64,000 bases of DNA, taken from the NCBI GenBank assembly GCA_046075485.1, contig JBJTQF010000040.1, positions 7,144 through 71,143 on the forward strand. The letters are read 5' to 3'. The stretch's first letter is position 1, and each line of letters begins with the position of its first letter. The notes below the pieces were generated by a model, which saw nothing but the letters and a program-made list of their open reading frames with translations, did no database searches and was not told the DNA's origin. Shown in pieces: positions 43,748-56,087 of the stretch. The translations under genes and the position numbers were made by a program. The DNA is from Myxococcota bacterium. GTDB lineage: Bacteria; Myxococcota_A; UBA796; JAJRTE01; JBJTQF01.

Positions 43748-43828
43748 TGGCATGAAAGTAGATCTGATGGTGTGATTTTAATGGCACAGATGAGTTTTTA
43801 AATGCGCTCTGAGCATGAGGGAATGGGT

Positions 43829-44629
43829 ATGCCGCCGATTTTACCGCGTCGTAGGTTGGGCAACACGGGGCTGGAGGTCTCGCTCCTGAGCTTGGGGACA
43901 GTGAAGCTGGGGCGCACGGAGGGGGTACGTTATCCCACTCGATTTGAGCTCCCGAGTGATGAGGACTTTCAAGCACTGCTGCGCTTGGCCCGTGACGGCG
44001 GGCTCAACCTGCTGGACACCGCTCCTTCCTATGGGGTGAGTGAGCTGCGCTTGGGTCAGCTCCTGAAGGGGCAGCGTGAACGTTGGTTGTTATGCTCCAA
44101 AGTGGGAGAGGCGTTTGAGCAGGGGCAATCCTCCTATGATTTTCGTCCTGAAGCGATCCGGGCGTCGGTGGAGCGTTCTCTGAGTCGTTTAAACACAGAC
44201 AGATTGGATATTCTACTGATCCACTCCGACGGACAGGACGTAAAGCGGATTGTGGAAGATGGGGCGCTTGAGACCCTCACCCGCTTAAAACAAGAAGGAA
44301 AGACCCGTGCGATTGGGATCTCGAGCAAGACCGTGGAAGGTGGACTGCTGGGGCTCGAGCACAGCGACTGCGTGATGGTGACTTTAAATCTGGGGCATCT
44401 CGACGAGCTCCCGGTGATCACACGGGCTGCGGCACTCCAGAAGGGCGTGCTGATTAAAAAAGCCTTTGCGTATGGCCATGCGTGTGTGAGCGACCTTGTC
44501 GATCCGGTGAGGGCGAGCTTAAAGTTGTGCTTGGACCAGCCAGGGGTGAGCAGTGTGGTGGTGGGCACGATCAACCCGGTCCATCTGCGAGAGAATATAC
44601 AAGCCGCCTGTACGTTGATCACCCCCTAA
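43829..44629 (+). CDS. Aldo/keto reductase
   Basis: LGNTGLEVSLLSLGT, LLDTAPSYG and ILLIHSDG (the LHxPD-like region) are present. GAGGGA lies upstream. Confidence 0.75.
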   Translation: MPPILPRRRLGNTGLEVSLLSLGTVKLGRTEGVRYPTRFELPSDEDFQALLRLARDGGLNLLDTAPSYGVSELRLGQLLKGQRERWLLCSKVGEAFEQGQSSYDFRPEAIRASVERSLSRLNTDRLDILLIHSDGQDVKRIVEDGALETLTRLKQEGKTRAIGISSKTVEGGLLGLEHSDCVMVTLNLGHLDELPVITRAAALQKGVLIKKAFAYGHACVSDLVDPVRASLKLCLDQPGVSSVVVGTINPVHLRENIQAACTLITP

Positions 44630-48995: not shown

Positions 48996-49616
48996 TCAGC
49001 TTTCCGAGGGGGAGGGCACGAGAAAACCGGTGGGACCGCCAAGCTGGTCGAGGGCTTCTAATACTTCGGTGAGGGGGAGGCCGACCACGTTGGTATAGGA
49101 GCCTTCAATCCGACGAACCAAAAACGCGCCGATGCCCTGGATGCCATAACCTCCGGCTTTGTCGAAGGGCTCACCGGTGAGCACATAACCGTGGAGCTCG
49201 CGTAGGCTGAGGCGTTTGAAGGTGACGTGTGTGATCACCCGCTGCTCGATGCGGTGCTCGTGGGTGTGTGCGGGGGGGCCGGTGCGCAGGAGCACGAAGG
49301 CGGTGATCACCTGATGGGTGCGGTCGCTGAGGCGCTCGAGCATCTGTCGGGCGTCTTCGGGGGTGCTGGGTTTGCCGAGGGCGAGTCCTTCGAGGACCAC
49401 TTCGGTGTCCGCGGCGAGCACGATCCGTCCGGGGGGGAGGCGGGCGGCGACGGCTTCGGCTTTGAGGCGTGCGTTGTAGAGGCTGACGAGCTCGGCGGAG
49501 ACCTCTTGGTGGCCGGTTTCTTCGACATCGGCGGTGCAGACTTCCAGCGGGATGCCCAGGCGAGAGAGCATTTCTCGCCGTCGAGGGGAGGCGGAAGCGA
49601 GGACGAGGGGTAACAT
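48996..49616 (-). CDS. maf: Maf-like nucleoside-triphosphate pyrophosphatase
   Basis: MLPLVLASASPRRREMLSRLGIPLEV...ADTEVVLEG...GKPST fits the Maf/YhdE family. Confidence 0.8.
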   Translation of the reverse strand: MLPLVLASASPRRREMLSRLGIPLEVCTADVEETGHQEVSAELVSLYNARLKAEAVAARLPPGRIVLAADTEVVLEGLALGKPSTPEDARQMLERLSDRTHQVITAFVLLRTGPPAHTHEHRIEQRVITHVTFKRLSLRELHGYVLTGEPFDKAGGYGIQGIGAFLVRRIEGSYTNVVGLPLTEVLEALDQLGGPTGFLVPSPSES

Positions 49617-49691
49617 GTTTCCTCCGAGGGGTGAAGCGCGGCTGCGAGGGGCTGGGCAGGCCGGACAAACGATGGTGACGGCGTGGGATGG
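49562..49691. repeat. Left copy of a 130-bp imperfect direct repeat (about 95% identity to 54041..54170); covers the maf 5' end and its upstream region
   Basis: Aligned by eye with 6 mismatches. It contains the maf start (ATGTTACCCCTCGTC on the minus strand). Confidence 0.75.
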
Positions 49692-49792
49692 TTTAGCATA
49701 GGAAAGCGGGCTCGGCTAGGAAAGAGGGCACGGCTAGACTCTGTTTCTCTAGGGAAGAGAGGGGGGCGGGCATGGACTTAATGTTTCAGCAC

Positions 49793-49869
49793 GGACATAA
49801 GTCAAAGTTGACTTATGTGGACATCTCGTATATTCATTGGACATAAGTCAAAGTTGACTTATGTGGACA
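49793..49869. promoter_or_regulatory. Two copies of a 31-bp site ggacataagtcaa-ag-ttgacttatgtggaca (each a palindrome with 11-bp arms), 46 bp apart and overlapping -35/-10-like hexamers
   Basis: Direct reading. TTGACT ... TATATT and TTGACT ... TCATAT hexamer pairs overlap the sites. A third weaker inverted repeat (tagtca-N6-tgacta) follows. Confidence 0.55.
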
Positions 49870-49922
49870 ATTTAGTCATATTACTGACTATTATGTAGAG
49901 CGTATGCTCGACCGGGAGGGAT

Positions 49923-51080
49923 ATGCAGGTCAATCCAGGTGGAATACTTGCCTTAGAGGATGTTCTAGGACGTGATGAGGTGATTGCGCAGCTTTGAAGA
50001 ATCCTCGAGCGACAGTCGGTCCTCTTGACCGCCGAGCGGCGTATGGGTAAGACCAGCGTCATCCGCAAGATGTGCAGTGAGAGCAAGCGTGGATTTCTGA
50101 AGTATCGAGATCTGGAAGGCATTCACACCCCACTGGAGTTTGCGGAGCTGGTCTTGAGTGATGCGCGTGAGGCTTTCACACAAGGGCAAAAGGTGAGCAC
50201 ATTCTTCAAGTCGCTCATCAAGGATCTGGGCGGGGTTGAGGTCGGCGGTCTGATAAAATTTCCAGATGGCAAGCCTCCCTCTTGGAAACAGGTTCTACAA
50301 GAGACACTTCAGGCAATGGTAAGGGCGCAGGAATCAAAGCTCGTAATCTTTTTCTGGGATGAGCTTCCACTGATGCTGCACAACATCGTAAAGCGTGAGG
50401 GTGAAGAGATCGGGATGAGCCTGCTGGATCTGTTGCGGGGCCTTCGTCAAGAGCTTCCGACACTTCGGATGGTCTATACCGGCTCGATTGGACTGCATAA
50501 TGTGCTGAGGTCGCTCAAGCGACAGGGATACGCCAATGCGCCTGTCAACGATATGTACATGTTTCCGTTGCCACACTTCAGCCAGGAACATGCACAAGAG
50601 CTCGCCAGTAAGCTGCTCCAGGCAGAGAAACTCCCGCATCACCTAGAACTTCAACACGCATTGGCGTTGGCTGCCGATCATATCCCCTATTACATTCATC
50701 ATTTGGTAGACCAGCTTCGTCTGCAACGAGATCCCATCACCCCGGAGCTGGTTCAAAAGAGGGTCACGGCCCTGATTCGGTCGCCACAGGATCCCTGGCA
50801 GCTCAAACACTATGTGGAGCGAATTGGCACCTACTACACAGAGACGGAGCAGCAACAGATCTTTGTAATCCTCGACCGCCTCTGTGTGACTTCCAAGGGG
50901 ATGACAACCTCGCAGCTCCGAAAACACCTCGACAAGTCCAGGTGGCCCTCGTCTCCAGCGGGCCTGGCGGAGCTCCTGCAACAACTGGAGCTGGATCACT
51001 ACCTGCGGCCCGTTGATGAGGCTTATGAGCTCAACAACACCATTCTAAAGCAGGGCTGGAGATACCACCGAGGTCTTTAA
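49923..51080 (+). CDS. AAA+ ATPase with C-terminal wHTH (archaeal-ATPase/DUF234-like), interrupted by an in-frame TGA at 49995-49997; possibly a pseudogene or recoded
   Basis: GGGAGGGAT precedes ATG 49923. Translation across the TGA gives LALEDVLGRDEVIAQL-stop-RILERQSVLLTAERRMGKTSVIRKM, matching the F.GRe.EL..L......l.ltG.RR.GKTsL motif. Walker B is KLVIFFWDE. The ORF track only reports 50025..51080 (TTG start). Confidence 0.55.
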
Positions 51081-51108
51081 CCGTCCCCCCCTCTTCTGGA
51101 GCAAGCAG

Positions 51109-54042
51109 ATGCAGATGTTGTCGCCTGAGCTGTCTTACTTTACGCCGAGCATGATGAAACCCGCGCTCTTGGAAGCTGTTTTTGTTAAACGCGCCCCGAT
51201 GCTTGAGCACCTGCTGACGCAAGTACACCAAGGGCTGATGGGTGGGAGTCTCCCCCAGGTCTTGTTGATGGGGCCACGCGGGATGGGCAAGACCCATCTG
51301 ATCAGCTTGCTCTACCATCGAGCAGCCGCCCTCCCCGACGTGCAGGAGCGCGCCTGTATCGCATGGCTCAAAGAAGAAGAATGGAGTGTGGATTCGTGGC
51401 TGGAGCTGCTTCGGGTCATCTTACAAGCCCTGTTGCAGCGAGACCCCCTTGCCAAAGCCTCCGGTGTGTCGCTCAAGGACCAGCTTGCCACCCTCCATCA
51501 TGCGGGAAGTATCGAGGAGGCAACCCGACGTGTTGAGCAGCTTCTGCTGAGCTATTTAGCCGGTCGGCGGATGTTGCTGTTGATGGAAAATCTTGATCAG
51601 ATCTTTGAAGGTCTCCAAGAGGAAGGTCAGCGACGTTGGCGTGCTTTCCTTCAGACCCATGCCAATACCTGCATTGTGGCGACCAGCCAAAGTCTCTTTG
51701 CAGGCATTACCGCACATTCGCAACCTTTCTACGGCTTCTTTCGGCAGGAGCACCTCGAGTCCTTTACCCTCGACGATGCGTGCCAGATGTTGGCAGGGGT
51801 CGCACGGGCGCGCCAGGATGAGCCACTGGCCTGCATTATTGAGCAACCCGAGGGTCGTGCTCGGGTGCGGGCCGTCGGTCATTTTGCCGGGGGGAATCCC
51901 CGTGTATATATGATCCTCTCTCAGTTTTTGACCCGTGAAAACCTAGATGAGCTGGTTCAGCCCTTCATGCGCATGCTCAACGAGCTGACGCCCTATTACC
52001 AGAGCCGGATGCAGACCCTCAGTCCTCAGCAGCGGAAGCTGGTGGAGTACTTGTGCCTAGAGCGAAAGCCGATCTCGGTCAAGGAGATGTCACAAAAGAC
52101 CTTTATCAAGCCGCAGACGGTCAGCTCCCAGCTCCGTCGATTGGAAGAGCTGGGATATGTGGTGGGACGAGAAGCAGGTCGTGAGACCCTCTACGAGCTA
52201 CGGGAACCGCTGATGCGTCTGACCATCGAGGTCAAACTCAACCGGGGCGAGGGAATTCCCATCTTTTTGGACTTCCTGCGGCTTTGGTATCCCCAACAGG
52301 AGCTGAAGCGCCAGCTCGACCGGCTGCCAGCCTTTGGCCTAAGCTGCACAGAGGAACGACGCCACCTTCGGATGGCCCTAGAGCTCACGGAGCAGGCTGG
52401 GGATGATCCTCGGGTCGCTGCATGCCTCCAAGATCTGAAGCAGTATGTACAGCAAGAAAACTGGGCTGATACGCTCAAGGTCACAGAGGAGCTGGTCGCG
52501 TTGAGAGGCAAAGGAGAGGACTATCTGGCTCGTGCCCAAGCCAAGTATGAACTGGATGATGTTTCTGGAGCCACGATGGACCTGGAGGAAGCCCTGAATC
52601 GCGAGCTGTCCCCGCAAGCGAAATGGGAGGCAAAAATGGAGCTGGCGTTCTGCTACTGGCTGGAGGGTGAAAACACCAAGGCCCTCGAACAGCTCCAACG
52701 TATGTCCAAAAAGGTACAGAAAAACGATAACTGGCAGCTCTTGATGATGCGTCTTCAGCTTGAGGAGGGCAACATCTCCACGGGGATGGCGCTGTTCCAG
52801 CAGCTCTTGGAAAAAACAGAGCGAGACTCCTCACGGCTGGAGAACCTCTTGTCTTGGGGCGATCCACGACAATTTGTCAGCTCTCTGACCAAGCTCAACT
52901 CCTTGTGGCTGATCTCCTGTATCAAAGAGGGTCTCTCCTACCTCGAGCTGTATTTGCAGGGGCTCCAGCTCAAGGCACAGCGCGAAGAAACGTTTGAGAA
53001 CGATGAGCTTGAACTCTTTTTTCTATTGTCCATTGTCCTGAGCACTCAGCCAGATGTCTTAGCAGAGCGATGGCGTTTCTGTGACGCCTCCATTCAGCGA
53101 CAAACAGAACATAGCAACGCATTGAGTTATCGGCTCATCACACAGTTTTACCTGGAGAAGTCTGAGAGGCTACCTCTAGGGCTGCTGCTTCACCATCAAG
53201 ACTTGTTCTGGCTGGAAATACTGAGGGGAGTGGTCGAAATCTGGAAACGGGCGCTCCAAGACCCTCGCCTTAATCTCTGGCTGCTCTTGGTGGAGTCTTA
53301 CACCAGTCTCGTAAGTAACATCACAAACATCATGAAGGAAGAAGCGGAACGAGCTCAAGACCCAACGCAGACTCCCACAGAAGAAGGGGCATCTCCAGCC
53401 GCGAGCCCATTTTTTTCGCCCTCCAGCCATGAGAAGCTGCATGAGGTTTTACAACAGGCTCAAGTCTTGACGGGACTTCCCTTTTCAGAGCTGATCTACA
53501 ATATCGCTCAGATGCTCTTATCAGAGGAGCTCTTTAAAGGTCGCCCTCAGCTTCTGGTGGCGTTACTCGTCTTGCGTTATGTGAACCTGGAGGACACCCA
53601 TCGACGCGATCTTCAGGCGCAGCTCATCGAAAAAAGCCAGACGCCAGAGCTACGAAGTATTCTCTCTATCGGGATCGTATTCTTCCATGAGCCTCGGCTG
53701 GCAAATACCTCTGAAGAGCAAACGCCGGAGCTCACGTCTCCCGCTGCTTCGGCATCACTTGGTGAAGTAGATAAAACCTCCCACACAGAGTCCCTCGAAG
53801 CAGCTCTCTCAGACCTGTTCCACCAGATGAAGGGCCATGTTACCCCGGAAGACTGGCGGAGCTTTTGGACTCCAGCCTTCGACAGCCTTCCCGAGCTGGC
53901 CACCTTCTTTCGTATTCTGGAGGTCGCCGAAGCCTACCGGCAAAAGCCTGAACGACGCATCTTACTCACCCTCCCCCTAGAGGAACGCATGATCGTGGCG
54001 GAGTACCTTAAACTTACGCATGAACAAGCAGCCATCGATTGA
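51109..54042 (+). CDS. STAND-like P-loop NTPase with wHTH and a long C-terminal TPR/helical-repeat region; paralogous to the upstream ATPase
   Basis: GGAG lies 7 nt upstream of ATG. FVKRAPMLEHLLTQV...VLLMGPRGMGKTHLISLL is the Walker A region and RMLLLMENLDQIF is Walker B. The wHTH is QQRKLVEYLCLERKPISVKEMSQKTFIKPQTVSSQLRRLEELGYV. About 550 aa of TPR-like repeats follow. Confidence 0.65.
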   Translation: MQMLSPELSYFTPSMMKPALLEAVFVKRAPMLEHLLTQVHQGLMGGSLPQVLLMGPRGMGKTHLISLLYHRAAALPDVQERACIAWLKEEEWSVDSWLELLRVILQALLQRDPLAKASGVSLKDQLATLHHAGSIEEATRRVEQLLLSYLAGRRMLLLMENLDQIFEGLQEEGQRRWRAFLQTHANTCIVATSQSLFAGITAHSQPFYGFFRQEHLESFTLDDACQMLAGVARARQDEPLACIIEQPEGRARVRAVGHFAGGNPRVYMILSQFLTRENLDELVQPFMRMLNELTPYYQSRMQTLSPQQRKLVEYLCLERKPISVKEMSQKTFIKPQTVSSQLRRLEELGYVVGREAGRETLYELREPLMRLTIEVKLNRGEGIPIFLDFLRLWYPQQELKRQLDRLPAFGLSCTEERRHLRMALELTEQAGDDPRVAACLQDLKQYVQQENWADTLKVTEELVALRGKGEDYLARAQAKYELDDVSGATMDLEEALNRELSPQAKWEAKMELAFCYWLEGENTKALEQLQRMSKKVQKNDNWQLLMMRLQLEEGNISTGMALFQQLLEKTERDSSRLENLLSWGDPRQFVSSLTKLNSLWLISCIKEGLSYLELYLQGLQLKAQREETFENDELELFFLLSIVLSTQPDVLAERWRFCDASIQRQTEHSNALSYRLITQFYLEKSERLPLGLLLHHQDLFWLEILRGVVEIWKRALQDPRLNLWLLLVESYTSLVSNITNIMKEEAERAQDPTQTPTEEGASPAASPFFSPSSHEKLHEVLQQAQVLTGLPFSELIYNIAQMLLSEELFKGRPQLLVALLVLRYVNLEDTHRRDLQAQLIEKSQTPELRSILSIGIVFFHEPRLANTSEEQTPELTSPAASASLGEVDKTSHTESLEAALSDLFHQMKGHVTPEDWRSFWTPAFDSLPELATFFRILEVAEAYRQKPERRILLTLPLEERMIVAEYLKLTHEQAAID

Positions 54043-54170
54043 GAGAGCATCTGTCACCGTCGAGGGGATGCGGAAGCGAGGACGAGGGGTAACATGTTTC
54101 CTCCGAGGGGTGAAGAGCGGCTGCGAGGGGCTGTGCAGGCCGGACAAACGATGGTGACGGCGTGGGATGG
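54041..54170. repeat. Right copy of the 130-bp direct repeat; contains a degenerate maf 5' fragment
   Basis: See the left copy. It begins at the stop codon of the 51109..54042 gene. Confidence 0.75.
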
Positions 54171-54478
54171 CCATCAAGGTTTCGATCTCTTTGTCGATGG
54201 TAAGGTGCTGGTAGAAGTGAAGGTCTCAAAATCGTACAACGTTCAGGATGAGGCACAGCTTCTGACGGGAGAGAGTCCCGGTTTTGGACAAGGCTCAGGA
54301 GCTGTTGCCCCCGCTCACCCTCTGCTGAGCCGGATGTTTCGTGAGCCCAAGCCGTCTCTGCTCCGCACACCGCATCAGACTGGCCATCAGCATGCCGAGC
54401 GCCACAAAAACCGCATCACTGGCGTGAGAAAATGTACCGTATTGCCACAAGGTGGGATACAGGCAGGTGCCTCAAGCT

Positions 54479-55105
54479 CTAAAAGCTGCGGCCATAACCA
54501 AACGAACCATAGACGTAAGGAGTGGCGTAGGTGGAAGGAACATTTGAGAGCAAACCATTGAAGGATGAAAAAAAGTCAGCCCCACTCTCAAAATATAAGG
54601 TGGAAGGTCCGTTCTGCCAAGCCAATCCCAGCGGCACACGCATGTAGCCCGTCGCGGCAAACTGAGCCGCCGGTGCCGTATAGAGCCAAAGCGACGGCTT
54701 CAACGCCACCGCCGCCGGGAGACTCAGCCGCCCATAGGCATAACCCCCTTGAAGCTCCAAGCCCATTCGGAATTTGGACTGCTCCAGAAAAGTATACTGA
54801 AGACCAACACCCGCCCCTATAAGGCTGCTCAAACCCATAAACGTGGACACCTGAACATTCAACTTCGGTGTGATCGAGCGAATATACCAAAGCTGCGCAT
54901 TCGGAGAGACTGGCATATTGGCTTCAAAATAGTTGGGATACCCTCCGGTGACAAAGCCTCCCAGCATGTTTTTGTGACCCTCCATCATCGGAAGTGGAGG
55001 GTTCATCATGGCGGCTGGCGCACAGGCGGAGAACATAATAGAAGCCAACACGCTCGTGATGAGTTTACGGGGCAAAACCTGAACACTGCATGAAGCACTC
55101 GTCAT
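54479..55105 (-). CDS. Outer-membrane beta-barrel protein (OmpA/OmpW-like small barrel), hypothetical
   Basis: The signal peptide is MTSASCSVQVLPRKLITSVLASIMFSACAPAA. Alternating aromatic/Gly beta-strand patterns end in a C-terminal ..YGRSF (terminal Phe). Confidence 0.5.
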   Translation of the reverse strand: MTSASCSVQVLPRKLITSVLASIMFSACAPAAMMNPPLPMMEGHKNMLGGFVTGGYPNYFEANMPVSPNAQLWYIRSITPKLNVQVSTFMGLSSLIGAGVGLQYTFLEQSKFRMGLELQGGYAYGRLSLPAAVALKPSLWLYTAPAAQFAATGYMRVPLGLAWQNGPSTLYFESGADFFSSFNGLLSNVPSTYATPYVYGSFGYGRSF

Positions 55106-55649
55106 ATTCTCCTGGAAGCTGAAGGCTGGATGCGCAGCCGTTTCTCTGCGACAGACTGAGCATATCACATCATTCAGTAACTAAAAACTTGTTTTCAATG
55201 TATCATAACTATCCATGTTTTTCATACACGTACACGCAGGCAGCGCACCTGTTCGATACAAAAAGCCCACCCATCCTGGAGACTCTGTCCGCATGAATAG
55301 AGACGCTTTCCGCGTGAATGGCCTTCTTGCCGCTTACGTGTGGTTGCACATGCGCTCCTCTCCGCATCCGCAGCTCCCATGCGAGGCCGTCAGGCTCCTT
55401 TTTTGCTCGAATGTGGTTAAGGGCCTCTAAGGATCGCAGCAGGAGGTGCCGCTCATGGTCGTCGTCCAGCAGAGCATTTCTGAGCCTCGCCGAGCCGGAG
55501 TACCCCGATAAAAGACCCACTCCATCGAATGTGATGCCGTGCTCATGATCATTCTGCTCGACACACCCGATGTCCTTCAGAGAAGGTACTCAGCATGGCA
55601 ATGGTGCCGTGTGTATGTCAAATGCCCCTCGCGTATATAGGAGGTCAAT

Positions 55650-55721
55650 ATGATTCAGGTGACGGTCCTTGTTGAAGTCGAGATGCGGGGCGCAGGTTCT
55701 CAGGTCGTGGGCTCTTTCTGA
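55650..55721 (+). CDS. 23-aa small ORF MIQVTVLVEVEMRGAGSQVVGSF with a near-perfect SD, in a low-GC intergenic islet
   Basis: TATATAGGAGGTCAAT precedes the ATG. No homolog is assignable and it may be non-functional. Confidence 0.2.
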   Translation: MIQVTVLVEVEMRGAGSQVVGSF

Positions 55722-56087
55722 GCCACGGACTGCTGCTGAGCTTCAGCACAGCCATCCAGGTATCGTGACGCCGTCACGGTCCATGTTGAGCAGCGTATGA
55801 TCGTTGCTTGAGGCTGTCGTTGAAGTCCTTCCTGACGCTTCCTGCCCCCGATGTCTCGTAATTTCCCGTATTTATTTTCTTTTGTTCAAAGTTTGGGCGC
55901 TTAGAATGCCTTGACTTCCCCAAGTGCGCGTGTACACAAACGCTCGAGAAGTGTCAACTTCTGGCATGTGTGTCACGCCATACAACAGACTTCTGACAAA
56001 GCAAAAGATAACGTATACCTCCATACTCTCTGCTCTCATGGGGTGATGTGTCACGAGATTCCATCACTCGCGAAGCCCATAGACGTA

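Follow-up and report, generated by a model that had tools for sequence, protein, structure and literature searches.

The wild-type tRNA-Trp of E. coli naturally suppresses UGA, this near-cognate tRNA inserting Trp at the stop codon, and a passage in PMC5289835 (citing Engelberg-Kulka 1981) describes UGA followed by A as especially prone to such misreading in that bacterium; with reporters, UGA readthrough in E. coli K-12 amounts to ~2-4% (PMC10570021). In prfB (RF2), the site CUU UGA C (as given in PMC5289835) directs a +1 frameshift. Ordinary nonsense pseudogenes, which NCBI places in its 'internal stop' class, show a single base change, homology on both sides of the stop and relatives that are intact. 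At the protein level, the ATPase_2-type AAA+ proteins 2fna (SSO1545) and 2qen (PABY2304), as well as Orc1/Cdc6, have in common an alpha0 element, a P-loop core, a helical lid and a C-terminal winged helix. Gene 1 of the locus described here, which lies in a 64-kb stretch of Myxococcota DNA (the window), touches on each of these systems: it has the same stop and the same +4 base as the suppressed sites of E. coli (UGA followed by A, a leaky context), the hexanucleotide CUU UGA in common with prfB, the single base change, two-sided homology and intact relatives of the nonsense pseudogenes, and the architecture of the ATPases. The features of the locus, with their coordinates in the window, are as follows.

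48996-49616, minus strand: maf (Pfam Maf, E=1.7e-60).
49562-49691, unstranded: left 130-nt direct repeat, made up of the first 18 maf codons and 75 nt upstream of maf.
49793-49823 and 49839-49869, unstranded: two identical 31-bp elements, each with the palindrome ACATAAGTCAA-AG-TTGACTTATGT.
49854-49882, plus strand: sigma-70-like promoter TTGACT-17-CATATT, a consensus match only.
49914-49919, plus strand: SD-like GGGAGG, preceding the ATG at 49923.
49923-49994, plus strand: codons 1-24 of gene 1 (MQVNPGGILALEDVLGRDEVIAQL), the ATG being 49923-49925.
49995-49997, plus strand: in-frame TGA, codon 25, context CTT TGA A, at the site of the invariant Trp25.
49998-51080, plus strand: codons 26-385 of gene 1 and its TAA (51078-51080).
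51109-54042, plus strand: gene 2, intact, encoding a 977-aa AAA_16 / winged-helix (MarR_2, HTH_24) / TPR protein, with its own SD, GGAG, at 51098-51101.
54041-54170, unstranded: right 130-nt direct repeat, which begins within the gene 2 stop codon and is a pseudo-copy of the maf 5' end.

The gene 1 frame runs for 385 codons, unbroken except for one internal stop, the TGA at 49995-49997. From the start the translation reads MQVNPGGILALEDVLGRDEVIAQL, stop, RILERQSVLLTAERRMGKTS and onwards, the residues immediately flanking the stop being DVLGRDEVIAQL and RILERQSVLLTAERRMGKTS; the P-loop GKTS corresponds to codons 42-45 and the Walker B motif WDE to codons 145-147, and two start codons, TTG 50025-50027 (codon 35) and ATG 50043 (codon 41), are found in the same frame downstream of the stop. 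The original prediction, made from the DNA alone, had described an SD and ATG at 49923 opening a frame with a TGA inside its N-terminal motif, and both the coordinates and the peptide were reproduced as given there. It had also proposed that the stop interrupts a once-continuous gene just ahead of Walker A, a proposal borne out by the Pfam AAA_16 match in the translation, which spans the stop (residues 14-71), and by homologs that extend on both sides. Judged from these matches, homology across the stop exceeds chance by far.

Among 5.8 billion proteins searched, 790 relatives of gene 1 were found, and 119 of these were aligned. The sole 100% match is MFM7199950.1, an 'ATP-binding protein' of 345 aa encoded by a Myxococcota MAG; the other relatives listed are mostly ~385-400 aa in length and, with few exceptions, align to the query from its first residue, and among them those of about 385-390 aa do so without exception, with a query coverage of 100%. 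The column occupied by the stop is Trp in all of the 119 aligned homologs, the ATG at 49923 is aligned with M1 in 105 of them, and the 24 codons before the stop retain N4, P5, G6, G7, G16, R17, I21 and L24, all nearly invariant in the family. One outcome contemplated in the original prediction was that orthologs would all begin at the downstream TTG, with an unconserved segment ahead of it; what is seen is that the homologs start upstream and that the upstream segment is conserved. Because gene callers hide interrupted genes, the raw DNA was also examined at 80 homologous loci; their genomes are GTDB representatives and include cyanobacteria, Acidobacteriota, Planctomycetota and Gemmatimonadota, among other groups. 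The codon at the position of the stop is TGG in every one of the 80, across many phyla, and no internal stop was found anywhere in the gene 1 homolog of these loci.

Since Trp occupies the column in 119/119 proteins and TGG the position in 80/80 loci, with no stops among them, the TGA reads as a lineage-specific change from TGG and not as a conserved recoding site; by the same comparison it is a private G-to-A transition at 49997. The closest relative in the collections searched, homolog P0002, is 53% identical. The source MAG is absent from the GTDB representative genomes that were scanned, an exact pattern scan of the JGI metagenomes for a close ortholog or a TGG allele, with N at the variable base, gave no match, and a protein-based scan of the same metagenomes gave no relative. 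The ancestral TGG of this lineage is thus inferred from distant homologs. A single base separates the codon of the homologs from the stop, and on either side of the stop the homology is in one and the same frame. An ordinary lineage-specific nonsense mutation, TGG>TGA at the codon of the invariant Trp25, is in our view very likely what happened here, and of the options listed in the original prediction it is the recent inactivating mutation that the Trp column and the TGG codons favour.

Recoding of other kinds, be it selenocysteine, a prfB-like +1 frameshift or a reassigned code, has almost nothing left to recommend it. TGA terminates 24 of the 40 long ORFs in the window and maf, the adjoining gene, also has TGA as its stop and is matched by Pfam over its full length; because no ordinary stop is more frequent in the window than TGA, the code is standard, and a reassigned code (table 4 or 25, with TGA as Trp or Gly) is ruled out. 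Selenocysteine, already considered unlikely in the original prediction, was rejected on several counts: the homologs have an invariant Trp and not Cys or Sec, the fold of the 80 nt that begin with the UGA (49995-50074) is no better than that of shuffled sequences (z=+0.41) and in this respect not SECIS-like, a search of Rfam at the stop gave no match even at E<=1, and neither tRNA-Sec nor any other tRNA was found in the 64-kb window. It is the resemblance of CTT TGA to the prfB shift site that could speak for a +1 frameshift. However, the homology stays in the 0 frame, the +1 frame is open for only ~10 codons, and an SD-like stimulator is absent from the sequence that precedes CTT, ATTGCGCAG. 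A simple repeat able to drive phase variation was likewise not found at the stop.

The position of Trp25 in the fold can be read from the AlphaFold (AF2) model of P0002 (pLDDT 91.4), in which W25 is part of a helix (residues 18-28) directly before beta1 (33-36), the P-loop residues G42-K43-T44 following; residue 35 lies in the middle of beta1 and residue 41 in the P-loop. G42, K43 and T44, as well as W145, D146 and E147, are invariant in the gene 1 family and are kept in the window. With this model as the query, the top-ranking Foldseek structures are 2fna and 2qen, both archaeal AAA+ ATPases (E=1.5e-12, TMq 0.63), followed by Orc1/Cdc6 proteins (2qby among the matches), RFC/RuvB and the NOD modules of NLR/Avs proteins. 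Searches with gene 1 returned no family above the cut-off in Pfam or NCBIfam (nothing at all in the latter), and a sequence search of the PDB gave a marginal match to ClpB only. Walker A, Walker B, the N-terminal alpha0-beta1 element and a C-terminal winged helix are all present in the sequence and in the model, and on the strength of the modelled fold the gene 1 product is an AAA+ ATPase with a C-terminal winged helix, similar to archaeal ATPase_2 and Orc1-Cdc6.

This fold bears on whether translation could re-initiate at TTG 50025 or ATG 50043 to give a functional shortened ATPase, as the 345-aa annotation in GenBank would have it. Both codons share the frame of gene 1 and lie 28 and 46 nt past the stop, and PGAP called the 345-aa product. 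The homologs, however, start some 34-40 residues further upstream and have a highly conserved N-terminus, the TTG is not preceded by an SD-like sequence and the ATG only by a weak GAG, and in the P0002 model both products are without alpha0 and without beta1 of the core sheet. Functional re-initiation at the TTG, one of the options of the original prediction, is hard to reconcile with a start in the middle of beta1, and we regard a functional product from either codon as highly improbable. Going by the established AAA+ architecture, products that lack alpha0 and beta1 should be non-functional and should neither fold nor bind nucleotide. The GenBank entry MFM7199950.1 corresponds to 50043-51080, its first residue being the P-loop Met (RRMGKTS), and seems to be an erroneous call at a gene interrupted by a stop. 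For annotation, it is almost certain that no such 345-aa protein exists, and an internal-stop mark should be added to the locus.

Another question is whether the base itself is real. The sequence is known from a single sample, as one NCBI contig and one Logan contig (run SRR29270176, 2,537 bp). The latter is identical, base for base and with the TGA included, to positions 49840-52376 of the window; it was produced by a different assembler and is unbroken at the site, and it may well have been built from the reads behind the MAG. It begins exactly at the second copy of the 31-bp repeat, as a k=31 graph would predict. Substitution errors are rare in a short-read consensus. An artefact of sequencing, assembly or consensus, or a mixture of strains such that the organism, or most of the population, truly has TGG, is made conceivable by the single sample and by the capacity of a MAG consensus to mask polymorphism. 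Against it stand the agreement of the Logan assembly over 2,537 bp and the rest of the 64-kb window, which is densely packed with long uninterrupted ORFs. An aldo/keto reductase gene at 43802-44629 was suspected of being a second broken gene, and thus a sign of poor assembly, on account of a half-length Pfam match, but its translation proved intact. The sequencing error that the original prediction had listed is accordingly unlikely given the identical assembly, and for error and strain mixture together a small share of probability is retained.

If the TGA is the nonsense mutation that we favour, ribosomes that start at ATG 49923 would mostly terminate after 24 residues and release a 24-residue peptide. 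A small fraction of ribosomes, at the percent level or less if E. coli is a guide, would read the UGA with tRNA-Trp; because the residue lost is Trp, such readthrough would regenerate the exact wild-type protein. From the leakiness of UGA-A and the insertion of Trp it follows that the gene 1 allele would be either null, that is, a knock-out, or a strong hypomorph, that is, a strong knock-down. Of all nonsense mutations, only TGG>TGA in a UGA-A context is corrected to wild type by basal readthrough, and the term 'pseudogene' may overstate the loss. Gene 2 would still be translatable from its own SD, and may suffer from transcriptional polarity.

As to the age of the lesion, of the 79 columns with a conservation of 95% or more in the family, gene 1 keeps 73. 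Besides W25, there are five departures at conserved columns, all conservative and two of them common to the nearest clade, and no frameshifts were found in gene 1. Since the conserved columns are kept, frameshifts are absent and gene 2 is intact, the mutation is probably young compared with the gene itself. Private changes at highly conserved Leu residues (L85F, L132M and L219F) could, on the other hand, reflect a constraint relaxed for longer than 'recent' implies.

The two genes lie between direct repeats of 130 nt that are identical at 124 positions (95%), and the module differs in composition from its neighbours, with a GC content of 0.54 and a GC3 of 0.62-0.64 versus 0.605 and 0.76-0.77. 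Going by these flanks and this composition, the cassette is horizontally acquired, and because gene 1 sits on acquired DNA a loss-of-function mutation in it is unsurprising. Direct repeats also flank the module in Floridaenema spp. and in a Synechococcales MAG, where they are 105-134 nt long and 89-95% identical, and in an Acidobacteriia MAG, where the repeat is 493 nt long and runs to the contig end (coordinates, by locus: L016, 4763-4896/8864-8996; L067, 832-936/5179-5282; L069, 4003-4495/8641-9133; also L017 and L018). In each lineage the repeats cover the end of a gene and its flank, and no recombinase gene was found between them. That the repeats are ends encoded by the element itself was rejected, because there is no similarity between lineages, and they are taken as host-derived. 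Campbell-type integration of a circle with a copy of the target, or an att-like replacement of the gene end, with an integrase supplied in trans, are candidate mechanisms.

Some features near the edges of the cassette are recorded here. An 18-nt tandem pair, TAGGAAAGCGGGCTCGGC / TAGGAAAGAGGGCACGGC, is found at 49699-49734, 7 nt inside the left edge. To the right, a segment of ~1.9 kb (54171-56087) has the lowest GC content of the window (0.527) and holds ORFs of 229 aa (minus strand, 54479-55168), 103 aa and 112 aa, which have no match in Pfam, NCBIfam or PADLOC. An ORF of 155 aa (54094-54561) starts in the right repeat; it is absent from all of the 80 other loci and, on this comparison, is probably not a gene.

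A homolog of gene 2 lies directly downstream of gene 1 in 79 of the 80 loci, while the genes around the pair vary from locus to locus; because the pair is kept while its surroundings differ, the two genes form a portable module. PADLOC v2 reported no system, with a weak match of gene 1 to PDC-S27 (E=2.6e-4) and matches of gene 2 that involve the wHTH only (Csa3/CasR), and a search of a plasmid collection gave one distant match, with 24% identity. One homolog of gene 1, P0077 (547 aa), is fused to a TIR_2 domain (PF13676), which hints at a possible place for the module among NTPase-based conflict or signalling systems.

The module appears to carry its own regulatory sequence. The candidate operator of the window, TAAGTCAAAGTTGACTTA, is present in two perfect copies, the only ones in the 64 kb, and the -35 hexamer TTGACT of the putative promoter forms the right half of the second palindrome. 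An 18-bp core, TA[C/A]GTCAA-NN-TTGAC[G/T]TA, is found at most 300 bp upstream of gene 1 in 50 of 81 other loci (drawn from the set L002, L006 and L011-L090), in many phyla, the background rate being 3 matches in 759 kb; its median position is -58 from gene 1, and it often forms arrays spaced 16 bp. A literature search for the palindrome returned unrelated primer sequences only. The palindrome has the appearance of an operator carried by the module, which may serve one of the two winged-helix proteins.

With an operator-like palindrome overlapping a -35-like hexamer, a regulatory role for the stop has to be weighed, namely that selection keeps the UGA-A as a leaky attenuator, with the gene 1 product made at ~1% through readthrough by tRNA-Trp. 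The remainder of gene 1 is intact, tRNA-Trp, on reading through the stop, would put the native residue back, and an A at +4 is reported, in the passage of PMC5289835 noted above, as the context most prone to misreading by this tRNA. The stop is, however, absent from all 80 genomic loci and all 119 proteins, the RNA downstream of it has neither a stimulatory structure (z=+0.41) nor an Rfam match, and a new nonsense mutation gives an identical sequence picture and is far more common. We therefore consider selection for an attenuator improbable, and we hold equally doubtful its extension to a newly acquired and possibly costly AAA+/STAND cassette, with possible autoregulatory buffering through the upstream palindromes. 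Were it true, the palindromic operator would raise transcription when the product is scarce, and the dose of gene 1 would be low, noisy and condition-dependent. Programmed or autoregulatory readthrough as a feature of the family, another option of the original prediction, finds no counterpart among the relatives (the stop occurs in 0/80 loci and 0/119 proteins).

Returning to the nonsense mutation, the TGA itself is an ordinary event, and the context of the module, a phylum-spanning and uncharacterised AAA+/STAND pair with its own conserved palindrome, is more interesting than the stop. In comparison with the described systems, suppression of UGA in E. coli is known from reporters and phage genes, whereas the site in gene 1 bears no sign of selection. 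Unlike the prfB site, it has no upstream SD-like stimulator, has A and not C at +4, and is followed by a protein that continues in the 0 frame. The predicted product is only 11-17% identical to 2fna, 2qen and Orc1/Cdc6, and its gene, unlike theirs, is paired with one for a large AAA_16-wHTH-TPR protein. Finally, gene 1 departs from the 'internal stop' class of pseudogenes in that it is unflagged in GenBank and in that basal readthrough, the stop being UGA-A in place of a Trp codon, would yield the wild-type protein again.
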